Assembly: GCA_044070495.1 (NCBI GenBank)
Contig: JBIPSI010000047.1
Coordinates: 1-29,233, forward strand
DNA from: Spirulina sp.
GTDB lineage: Bacteria > Cyanobacteriota > Cyanobacteriia > Phormidesmidales > Phormidesmidaceae
Length of the DNA: 29,233 nucleotides
Reading direction: 5' to 3'
A program made the position numbers. Position 1 is the first letter of the stretch. Every line of letters starts with the position of its first letter. Of this stretch, positions 15,001 to 18,000 are shown piece after piece.

Positions 15001-18000
15001 CCATCGACTGGATCCCCTGCGGTCGGAAGCTCACCTGCTCCTATCCCGGCATTCGGATGCACTACGGCCCCGACACCTACTACGGCCACGAGGTTTCTGT
15101 ACTAGAGGTGGATGGTCAGTTTGATCGATTGGAAGAGATGATCTACCTGGAAAGCCACCTGAGCAACACCTCCACCAAGTACTACGGTGAAATGACCGAG
15201 CTGCTGCTGAAGCACCGTGAATACCCCGGTTCCAGCAACGGTAGCGGCCTGTTCCAGGTGCTTGTGGGTCTGAAAATGCGCGCCACCTACGAGCGTCTGA
15301 CCTCCACCAGCCTCAACGTGGCCACCCACGCCTAGGGTAAGCAAAACCGTACGGTGTATAACGCTAAGGCGAGGCTTCGCGTTGGCGAATTAATGCACCA
15401 CACCCACCATCATGGTCTGACGAATCATTGTCTGGCTCATAATCAAGGAGAGGATGCAGGGTTGTGTCCTCTCCTTTCTTTTGGAAGGGATTTCTCTTAC
15501 TAGGGTCTCTCCCCGCCATGGATCTCACCCTCACTACCCCCGCCCTTTTGTTTCCCGCTATTTCCCTGCTGCTGCTGGCCTATACCAACCGCTTTCTGGT
15601 GCTGGCCCAGCTCATTCGCCAACTCCACAGTTCCGAGCGGGATTATTTTGAGGCGATGGTGCAAAAGCAAATTACCAACCTACGCCGCCGCATAGCTCTG
15701 ATTCGGCTGATGCAGGCGTTGGGAGTATCCAGCTTCATTTTCTGCACCCTGTCAATGTTTTCGCTGTTTGTGGATCAGCTTCGGTTGGCTGAGGTGTTGT
15801 TTGGGTCGGCCCTGGTTTTGCTGGCGGCCTCGCTGATTGTGTCCCTCTACGAAATCGCGATCAGCACCAAGGCCATTGAGGCCGAACTGGCGGATATCGT
15901 TGCGAAAAGTCGCTGAAAATACCCCGACCTAAGCCACGCCAATCCTCACTGGCCCTCACCCTAAATCCCTCTCCCAAGCTGGGAGAGGGATTTTGAAGGA
16001 TGCTCCAGTTCCCCTCTCCTCCCTGGGAGAGGGGCTAGGGGTGAGGGCCGTCAAGGACTTACTGGGCTACTCAGGGGCCGACCAAGTGCGACCATCTAGG
16101 GCGGTTTGGACGGCTTGGCGCTGGTCGCGGAGGGTAATCCAGCGGTGGTAGGTACGGGTGTGGATGGCGACGGAGTGGCCCATCATCCGGGCGGCGACGG
16201 TGTCGGGGAGACCAAAGTGGATGGTGCGAACGGCCCAAGCATGGCGAAGGTCGTAGGGCGAAAAGGGCACCCCGTAGCGCTTGAACTGGAGGGCGACCTG
16301 TTGCCCCACCCGTTGCAGAGTGGTAGTGGCGAGATCAGTATTGATCGGCGGCAGTTCCCCTTGGCGCAATTCAAAGCGTTCCACCCATTCGGGATAGAAG
16401 GGCCAAACGTCGTGCAGTCCGGTTTTGGTGGTTTCGAGGACGGTAATCCGAGCTTCGGGGTCGCCTGTGGACAAAAGGCTGCGGTCACAAAAAAATACCT
16501 CATGGTTTCGCAAGCCGTAGGCGGCCATTAATCCATAAACCGTACGCCAAGCGGGGTTTGGGATCAGGTCATGCCAGGTCAAAATATCCTCATCGGTGGG
16601 CAGGTGGCGGCGCTGGGTTTTGTGGCTGCCGTAGGTGCCCCACAGGGTCTCTAGGTCAACGGGCAGAGCAATTTTATGAAAATCCGCAAAGGCTTTGAGG
16701 GCCGTACAACCCACTTGCCGACTGCGGGCCTGTCGGGGCAGGGCTTCTAAGGTCGCCACAATGGCCTGTCCTAGAGATTGGCGCGGGTGGTCGTTCACCT
16801 GGGCCAGCAGCTTATTCAGGTAGGGGGCGTAGGCCTTTGTCCAGGTACTTTTCAGCGCTGCTTGGGCCGCGATATCCTCCCCCGGACGGTGGAACCAGTG
16901 GGATTGAAACTGATCAATCAGGTCGGCGATGGGCTGATGGTCGGGATCGGCAGGGACTTCAGTGGGTAGGTACTCGGCCCAATCAAAGGCGCGCTCAATT
17001 AGTCGGGCGGCGATCACCTTGGCGTCTTGCTCAATTTGCTTCAGTCCGGCCTTGGTGGCGGGGATGCCCAGGGGAATGCGCTGCTGGTGGGGTTTGGTAC
17101 GGCCACTGTCGGGCCTAGGCGGTAGGGTACCCCGCAGGGCCAGTCGATCTCCGCGCCGCTCCACCGCTAATCCCATGCGAGCCGCTTTCAGCCGTTCGTT
17201 GAGCTTGGCAATGGCGGCATCTAGGCTATCCGTGGCTCCCATATCCAGTGCATTTTCGGGTAAGGACAGATTAAAGGTAAAGCCCCGTAGGGTGAGTTGG
17301 CGCAGCGTAACCCAGCCTGGTTAAGGCTTTAATGCGTTACAGCAACACCTAACCCATTTTCAGTAGATCACAAACTCTCTTGACTGCCCTAAGCTTGGCC
17401 CTCACCCCCAGCCCCTCTCCCACGAAGGAGAGGGGAGTCGGAAGTCCTTCAAAGGCCCTCTTCCAACATGGGAGAGGGATTTAGGGTGAGGGCTGGATCG
17501 TGCCAAAAGGGGCCGTTTGTGTCCTAATGATTCTACTCAAGATGCCGACAACTGACTAAATCGGTAGATTCAGCGACGTTTTACCGTGGAATCGGCGGAT
17601 TCGTGGATGGATGATCAACTGACCCTGTAGAATGGGTAGTATTAGGAACAGTTAGCATTAAGGCTGAGCCAAGGCTAACGATTCCCGCCAAAATCTCCCC
17701 GCCAGCCTGGGGAACTCGCCGCAGCTATCGGCGGCAAATTGTTACGATAATAAAAGATTATTCGCCGTTTAGAAAACAGCACAGTGCCATGGGTCGCGTA
17801 GGGGTCTTACTGCTAAATTTGGGCGGGCCAGAACAGCTAGAGGATGTTCGTCCCTTTTTGTTCAACCTATTCGCCGATCCAGAAATCATTCGGTTGCCCT
17901 TCCCCTGGTTGCAGCGCCCCCTGGCCTGGTTGATTTCCAGCTCCCGCGCCCAAAAGTCCCAGGAAAACTACCAGCAGATTGGCGGTGGTTCGCCCCTGCG

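Follow-up and report, generated by a model that had tools for sequence, protein, structure and literature searches.

The draft genome of Spirulina sp. (GCA_044070495.1, here G000) carries a tyrosine recombinase gene, g04413, which an earlier survey had assigned to the XisA excisase clade, described as a hemH-linked housekeeping gene, and put forward as a candidate for the missing Xer-like resolvase. The locus raises the question of what a fixed chromosomal enzyme of this kind does and on which DNA site it acts. We analyzed the whole stretch of DNA that holds the gene (contig JBIPSI010000047.1, positions 1-29,233; the window) together with orthologs of g04413, collectively referred to as the core gene. 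According to the accessible part of PMC3025954, no dif site could be predicted in any of the cyanobacteria examined there, and the accessible part of a 2019 genome paper (PMC6416890) reports no predicted dif sites in cyanobacteria. In the accessible text of PMC10913375, a "dif" of P. marinus is marked inside a literature-derived 6-kb terminus window, with neither a sequence nor an enzyme. The literature considered also includes PMC8995045, PMC10187409, and 10.64898/2025.12.09.693284.

The recombinase gene and its locus

The survey had described the catalytic motifs of g04413 as intact, and our analysis agrees: the 391-aa open reading frame encodes N-terminal, core-binding, and catalytic domains (Table 1), and the five catalytic residues are invariant in 50/50 rows of the ortholog alignment. 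The first histidine of the HxxR motif is replaced by Tyr330 throughout the family. With this one exception, the R-K-H-R-H/W-Y catalytic set and the fold qualify g04413 as a tyrosine recombinase, and the AlphaFold model of its product (pLDDT 92.6) has tyrosine recombinases as its best structural matches, with XerA, IntI, and lambda integrase among the proteins matched. The protein scores under the cut-off of the Pfam phage-integrase family and is matched by no NCBIfam model. It is not a XerC or XerD protein by the cut-offs of TIGR02224, TIGR02225, and NF001399, and it carries an extra N-terminal domain in addition to the two-domain build of XerC/XerD. This N-terminal domain is better conserved in the ortholog alignment than the core-binding domain (mean 0.70 versus 0.60) and is modeled as helices with a three-stranded sheet; a fold search gave no clear match (best Z, 5.3). 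Atlas feature matching, taken as a lead only, scored it at 0.96 for XisAC_N and at 0.90 to 0.93 for arm-binding families.

Table 1. Features of the g04413 locus (window coordinates) and candidate site copies elsewhere in G000 (contig coordinates)
Feature	Position	Strand	Description or basis
Tyrosine recombinase gene g04413 (core gene)	16067..17242	-	391 aa; three domains (N-terminal, core-binding, catalytic)
N-terminal alpha-beta-beta-beta-alpha domain (residues 7-90; Pfam XisAC_N), probably arm-type DNA binding	16973..17224	-	Fold, conservation, feature match
Catalytic residues R245, K273, R333, H356, Y365	16148..16510	-	Ortholog alignment
Divergent intergenic region between g04413 and hemH, 546 bp	17243..17788		Search within 300 bp of orthologs gave no conserved recombination-type palindrome
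hemH (ferrochelatase), usual divergent neighbor; synteny marker	17789..18952	+	Annotation and ortholog loci
Palindromic repeat copy, downstream side of g04413; not an element end	15950..16049		Genome-wide repeat
Palindromic repeat copy, upstream side of g04413	17396..17493		Genome-wide repeat
Candidate site copy, contig C70	~3418	+	Combined-score model
Candidate site copy, contig C35	~49958	-	Combined-score model

No tRNA gene was found in the 29,233-nt window. A search for element ends around g04413 returned, as the only notable flanking repeats, two copies of a palindromic repeat of ~100 bp that bracket the gene as an inverted pair. Since this repeat recurs at 111 places in G000, we see no sign of an excision element at g04413, as the survey had concluded. 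No conserved recombination-type palindrome was found within 300 bp of the core-gene orthologs. Two other recombinase genes lie in the window. One (1522-2082, + strand) encodes a 186-aa tyrosine recombinase that consists of the catalytic domain alone, and another such gene is present on contig C50. The other (8111-9508, + strand) encodes a large serine recombinase with an XisF match below the cut-off; it follows unannotated open reading frames and possibly belongs to a small element.

With one full-length match at an E value of ≤6e-95 taken as the criterion for an ortholog, the core gene is single in 77 of 151 class genomes, G000 included, and never occurs twice in a genome; two further matches are split. 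It is present in 60/61 genomes of family f2, which we infer from genome size and composition to be the picocyanobacteria, and in none of the 61 genomes of f30, the excisase-bearing, heterocyst-forming family. hemH adjoins it in 24 of the best 30 loci and in 11/20 loci picked for spread, two of which are shared with the best-30 set. The picture of a single-copy, fixed, hemH-linked gene drawn by the survey is thus upheld, and like the recombinases of Xer-like systems, the core gene is a single chromosomal gene, apparently kept by vertical descent. It is the sole PF00589 match in three of five genomes tested (the complete genomes G111, G062, and G071). In five f2 genomes (L212, L213), the core-gene match is interrupted by extra sequence past the N-terminal domain. 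Apparent "fusions" of 836 and 878 aa in G211 and G234 were rejected as open frames overlapping hemH on the opposite strand.

The gene is not intact everywhere. In the complete genome G039, a 246-bp deletion breaks the core gene, which is the only PF00589 match there, and the gene is likewise broken in G119; the two genomes (L289, L292) share a genus whose other members retain it and are natural knockouts. A PF00589 search of G061 gave no match whatsoever, and four single-contig f30 genomes have neither the core gene nor an NF001399 match. With two broken copies, and with no substitute in G061 and these four f30 genomes, the function of the core gene is dispensable in some lineages. The term "housekeeping" therefore fits the fixed single copy and does not fit f30 or the two knockouts.

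Relationship to tRNA-targeting integrases and XisA-type excisases

Full-length homology and the XisAC_N domain place g04413 in a family of XisAC_N-bearing integrases. Its weaker homologues adjoin a tRNA or tmRNA gene in 17/20 loci, versus 0/20 for the core gene. The only clear paralog in G000, on contig C3, is 30% identical to g04413 and lies beside tRNA-Arg. It terminates an element of ~93 kb whose other boundary is a partial tRNA copy and which has sheath, baseplate, tape-measure, capsid, and terminase matches. This agrees with the survey, which had counted the integrase of a myovirus prophage in this genome among the family members. Family members also occur in cyanophage P-SS2 and on two small circular records. 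An alignment-based scan of viral contigs detected 69 family loci, none of them core-like (≤39% identity over the full length); a single-protein scan of viral contigs gave no match. Some mobile members are thus viral, as had been claimed for all of them, and the group is defined by tRNA targeting rather than by proviral origin. A separate observation concerns contig C15 of G000 (L040; L035:1099-2001), where a 300-aa phage-type recombinase is encoded ~4 kb from tRNA-Phe in a probable island; the 3' part of this gene holds tandem repeats resembling those of the candidate site described below, and the neighboring open reading frame is probably helicase-like.

Mean identity to g04413 is 35% for the tRNA-targeting integrases and 28% for the XisA-types. 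Trees, which the survey had lacked, were built with FastTree (118 rows) and IQ-TREE (49 of those rows, including a quick mixture tree) and were read as unrooted. The core genes formed one clade (support, 99 to 100) and the XisA-types another (99), while the backbone of mobile integrases was weakly resolved. g04413 therefore lies outside the XisA clade to which it had been assigned. The XisA and XisC excisases are homologous to g04413 over the full length, including the N-terminal domain and the catalytic motifs. In contrast to g04413, the XisA-types are proteins of ~470 aa that are multi-copy, are seen in a family without the core gene, and lie in elements splitting nif or cox genes; in f30, 11/14 loci have them next to fragments of nitrogenase, NifH, or COX1.

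These relationships bear on where the core gene came from. Redeployment of the core gene as XisA/XisC would explain why none of the 61 f30 genomes retains it, and an AU test rejected neither a tree in which core genes and XisA-types were constrained together (p-AU, 0.58) nor nesting (p, 0.26); the constrained tree was 6.0 log-likelihood units above the free quick tree. However, the core-binding segment measures 44 aa in 23/24 core proteins, 37 to 39 aa in 8/8 XisA-types, and mostly 39 aa in mobile members, and the 5 extra residues of the core proteins are missing from the XisA-types. Moreover, two of three free trees do not unite the clades, the third leaves the join open, and several other families without the core gene have no excisases either. 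We regard redeployment as improbable. The simplest reading of the sequences is that the core gene was domesticated from a mobile ancestor: a tRNA-targeting integrase of phages or islands would have been captured once and fixed beside hemH. The survey's further proposal, a viral source for the heterocyst excisases, is unsupported as worded, and a phage origin of Xis elements is already hypothesized in the accessible part of PMC4874684.

The legend of Fig. 3 in Hackl et al. (10.1101/2020.12.28.424599) groups tRNA-associated tycheposon integrases with one "Prochlorococcus core gene integrase." This is very probably the core gene, since two complete genomes of 1.6 to 1.75 Mb encode no other tyrosine recombinase. 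The accessible text of that paper does not say what the integrase does or targets and mentions neither a link to hemH nor an occurrence outside Prochlorococcus.

Other Xer-like recombinases in genomes with and without the core gene

Profile searches of G000 yielded no XerC/XerD match above the cut-off and no FtsK, as the survey had noted. FtsK was also absent from 12/12 f2 genomes, and FtsK-domain matches of unsorted type occur in 30/151 class genomes. A strong PF00589 match in G000, near a contig end (L031:338-1309, C33), is an integron integrase above the TIGR02249 cut-off.

Within the set of 151 class genomes, families without the core gene have an Xer-like match in most or all members (f4, 10/11; f5, 12/12; f14, 5/5; f19, 8/8; f21, 6/6), and in f28 (2/2) the matches include true XerC and XerD. 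The corresponding counts in core-gene families are 3/12 (f2), 1/11 (f17), and 0/3 (f8). Among the single-contig genomes in the tables examined, which are kin and so not independent, a non-integron simple recombinase is present in 13/15 without the core gene versus 1/17 with it. In f5, 11/12 genomes carry one Xer-like type and the twelfth carries the core gene. The members that were fetched show the substitute recombinases to be lineage specific, and those of f4, f14, and f19 are syntenic. On the genome sequences compared, the core gene and other fixed Xer-like recombinases are therefore close to mutually exclusive. Draft genomes of f1, f13, and f15 often combine the core gene with an unsorted Xer-like match, and f30, G039, and G061 have neither the core gene nor an Xer-like recombinase as a fixed gene. 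We consider the fixed simple recombinases of f4, f5, f14, f19, and f21 and the XerC/XerD of f28 (L230-L243, L260-L271) to be candidate resolvases. A conserved palindrome was not found beside those of f4, f5, f14, f19, and f21. Pentamer clusters similar to those beside the candidate site described below were seen within or before simple recombinase genes of f5 and others (L328-L337, L253, L269), and the f5 frames extend ~200 codons further upstream.

Replacement of Xer by an enzyme from a mobile element has a precedent in the accessible part of PMC8987985. The accessible text of PMC8138268 (Smyshlyaev et al.) treats the arm-type domain as a mark of mobile integrases and proposes a "Cyan" subgroup as an Xer substitute in some cyanobacteria. 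The suspicion that this subgroup might be the core gene was removed by the HMM consensus and the member list. Its HMM is a simple one of 315 positions with a Cre-like consensus at the first catalytic arginine (RDRALLLLGFAGALRRSE, read by eye from model positions 137-187), against YGLMAAYGLRNHE in g04413, and its listed members are mostly proteobacterial, 425 of them alpha- or gammaproteobacterial.

A candidate site opposite dnaN

A dif-like site had been missing from the survey. For three complete genomes whose sequences begin with dnaN, we footprinted blindly the intergenic DNA over 200 to 280 kb around the AT-skew switch. Once tRNAs, short genes lacking annotation, and AT-rich noise were set aside, a single shared element emerged, downstream of a gene for a DnaJ-domain protein. 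In 30 f2 loci, the element begins with pentamer arrays at 12-bp spacing, followed by a short motif with an 11-bp period and then by an inverted repeat. The inverted repeat was detected in 29/30 loci, in 25 by a strict pattern and in four with shorter arms; none was found in L405. The 11-bp-period repeats sit at fixed offsets of 61 to 63 and 72 to 74 bp before its core. The main site lies 46.5 to 52.4% of the way round from dnaN in 7/7 complete genomes measured (six of f2 and G008). One site was matched in each of five of six f2 genomes, and two were present in G088 and in G000. The gene for the DnaJ-domain protein is present in 57/61 f2 genomes (L379-L408; L364:3950-5014), immediately ahead of the pentamer arrays that flank the site, and was not found in G000. 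On our reading, the N-terminal part of this protein is ribbon-helix-helix-like; the protein is a candidate accessory factor for the site.

In an alignment of 26 sites (27 picked by script, one removed for wrong orientation), the three innermost pairs of the inverted repeat are invariant in 26/26 rows, whereas 20 versions of the asymmetric 7-bp middle occur. The outer five pairs change together, with complementarity in 97/110 cases against a shuffled mean of 87, the rows being kin and not independent. Such a profile, in which an inverted repeat encloses a variable and asymmetric middle of 7 bp, is that of the core sites at which tyrosine recombinases act with a 7-bp overlap.

The connection between this site and the core gene was examined through the mobile relatives. 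Many of 48 loci, inspected by eye, show tandem repeats similar to those of the site in the stretch that leads from the tRNA to the start of the integrase gene; in a strict sequence-blind test, 11-bp tandem repeats preceded 8/42 mobile integrases and 1/55 core genes. In the att site of one mobile relative (L428), tandem repeats stand at the same distance from the core as in the candidate site. We read that core as a partial tRNA anticodon stem with a 7-nt loop, although ARAGORN makes no call there. The end of the G000 prophage shares the layout of the candidate site to within ~3 bp, with different repeat letters. Five site-bearing genomes (G062, G111, G139, G100, and G250) have the core gene as their sole family match; in two of them, G062 and G111, no other PF00589 match occurs either.

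Site and gene might nevertheless be unconnected, the site being an operator, a site for another protein (for example, the ribbon-helix-helix-like/DnaJ protein), or the scar of a lost element, and the recombinase target lying elsewhere. The link to the enzyme consists of layout and co-occurrence, and in f2, the site always follows the DnaJ-domain gene, with the pentamer arrays between them. However, the layout is kept without that gene in G000 and with other neighbors in G008; the variable asymmetric middle and the fixed arm spacing match the att sites of the family; and complementary changes in the arms would not persist in a scar. We think it improbable that site and gene are unrelated, and likely, judging from sequence, that the core enzyme acts on the candidate terminus site.

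Beyond the picocyanobacteria, a loose composite pattern, which is noisy (71/151 genomes matched, versus 13/151 for the strict core pattern), picked out clear sites in G008, G033, G051, G118, and G144, five genomes that each possess the core gene. It also matched G120, which has mobile relatives and no core gene. Matches of the strict pattern outside f2 looked like chance and were discarded. The layout recurs in families f8 (3/3) and f15, and the site is known in four families altogether; the neighbors of the G008 site differ from those in f2. G000 has two copies with an identical right arm (Table 1), both missed by the picocyanobacterial matrix and by a generic palindrome scan. When only five sites, all taken from other genomes, were used for training, the resulting model ranked the two copies first and second (35.7 and 31.2; next score, 18.0), and its best score in six shuffled genomes was 24.4. 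At loose thresholds, G000 has 4 such places versus 1 to 4 in the shuffles, and it takes the combined score to set the two sites apart. The draft state of the G000 assembly precludes locating them relative to the terminus.

What lies around the sites invites a different interpretation, in which the enzyme acts on the site but is selected for uptake or removal of foreign DNA at the terminus. Integration sites have this arm-type layout, and the core gene is dispensable in some lineages. Mobile DNA flanks both G000 copies (insertion sequence [IS] and unknown genes for C35, TniQ and IS for C70); with two copies in each of G000 and G088, these neighbors fit an integration hot spot. The second copy in G088 (L462:9808), with three repeats on its other side, is bordered by glyQ and by DNA that encodes a T7-like RNA polymerase and an integrase; it is possibly a phage remnant that uses or mimics the host site, and comparison with named phages gave no match. 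Restriction genes occur near the G008 and G118 sites. Xer/dif itself is hijacked by mobile elements, so such flanking cargo fits a resolvase equally well. A hot-spot integrase would leave unexplained both the swap with unrelated simple Xer-like recombinases and the single syntenic copy of the site opposite dnaN in genomes of 1.6 to 1.9 Mb. We consider it unlikely that uptake or removal of foreign DNA is what maintains the enzyme.

The survey's candidate for an Xer-like resolvase is supported and gains a complementary distribution and a terminus site. With some confidence, we favor dimer resolution as the main job of the core gene, which would be a single-enzyme resolvase independent of FtsK. 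The captured integrase would work alone on one att-like chromosomal site near the replication terminus. Its core-binding and catalytic domains would cleave the inverted repeat to give a 7-bp overlap, and its N-terminal domain would bind the tandem repeats of 11-bp period. Bound to the arms, the complex would give directionality as FtsK does for XerCD, perhaps helped by an accessory protein that binds the flanking pentamer arrays, and recombination between the two site copies on a dimer would turn dimers or multimers into monomers.

Lambda integrase has three domains, a 7-bp overlap, and tandem arm-type repeats. The proposed system has these in common with lambda-type integrases; unlike them, g04413 lies off any element with no adjoining att site, and its candidate target is a fixed host site. 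Like Xer/dif, including the single-recombinase systems XerS/difSL, XerH/difH, and archaeal XerA/dif, it combines one fixed chromosomal tyrosine recombinase with an inverted-repeat site of ~28 bp opposite the origin. In contrast to Xer/dif, it has an extra N-terminal domain, tandem arm-type repeats, a 7-bp middle, no XerC/D family score, no FtsK in G000, and a candidate site far from the gene.

New here are the complementary recombinase pattern and the candidate target site. In searches of the openly accessible literature, bioRxiv supplements excepted, we found no description of the site, the enzyme-site pair, or the complementary pattern. The core integrase (probably through Hackl et al.) and the hypothesis of a phage origin for Xis were known already. 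A wider scenario, to which we give about an even chance, is that in much of the cyanobacteria, including Prochlorococcus and Synechococcus, dimers are resolved by a domesticated arm-domain phage integrase that acts on a terminus site derived from att, where arm repeats take the place of FtsK; unrelated recombinases would have taken over the resolvase slot on several occasions, and the site would be hijacked by mobile elements. The system for chromosome unlinking has never been identified in cyanobacteria, and the core gene and its site are a testable candidate: a named enzyme and a located candidate site make the cyanobacterial dif question experimentally tractable. If the proposal is true, a chromosome resolvase has retained the arm-type domain, a feature held to be typical of mobile integrases, and cyanobacteria would possess a native point for site-specific integration.
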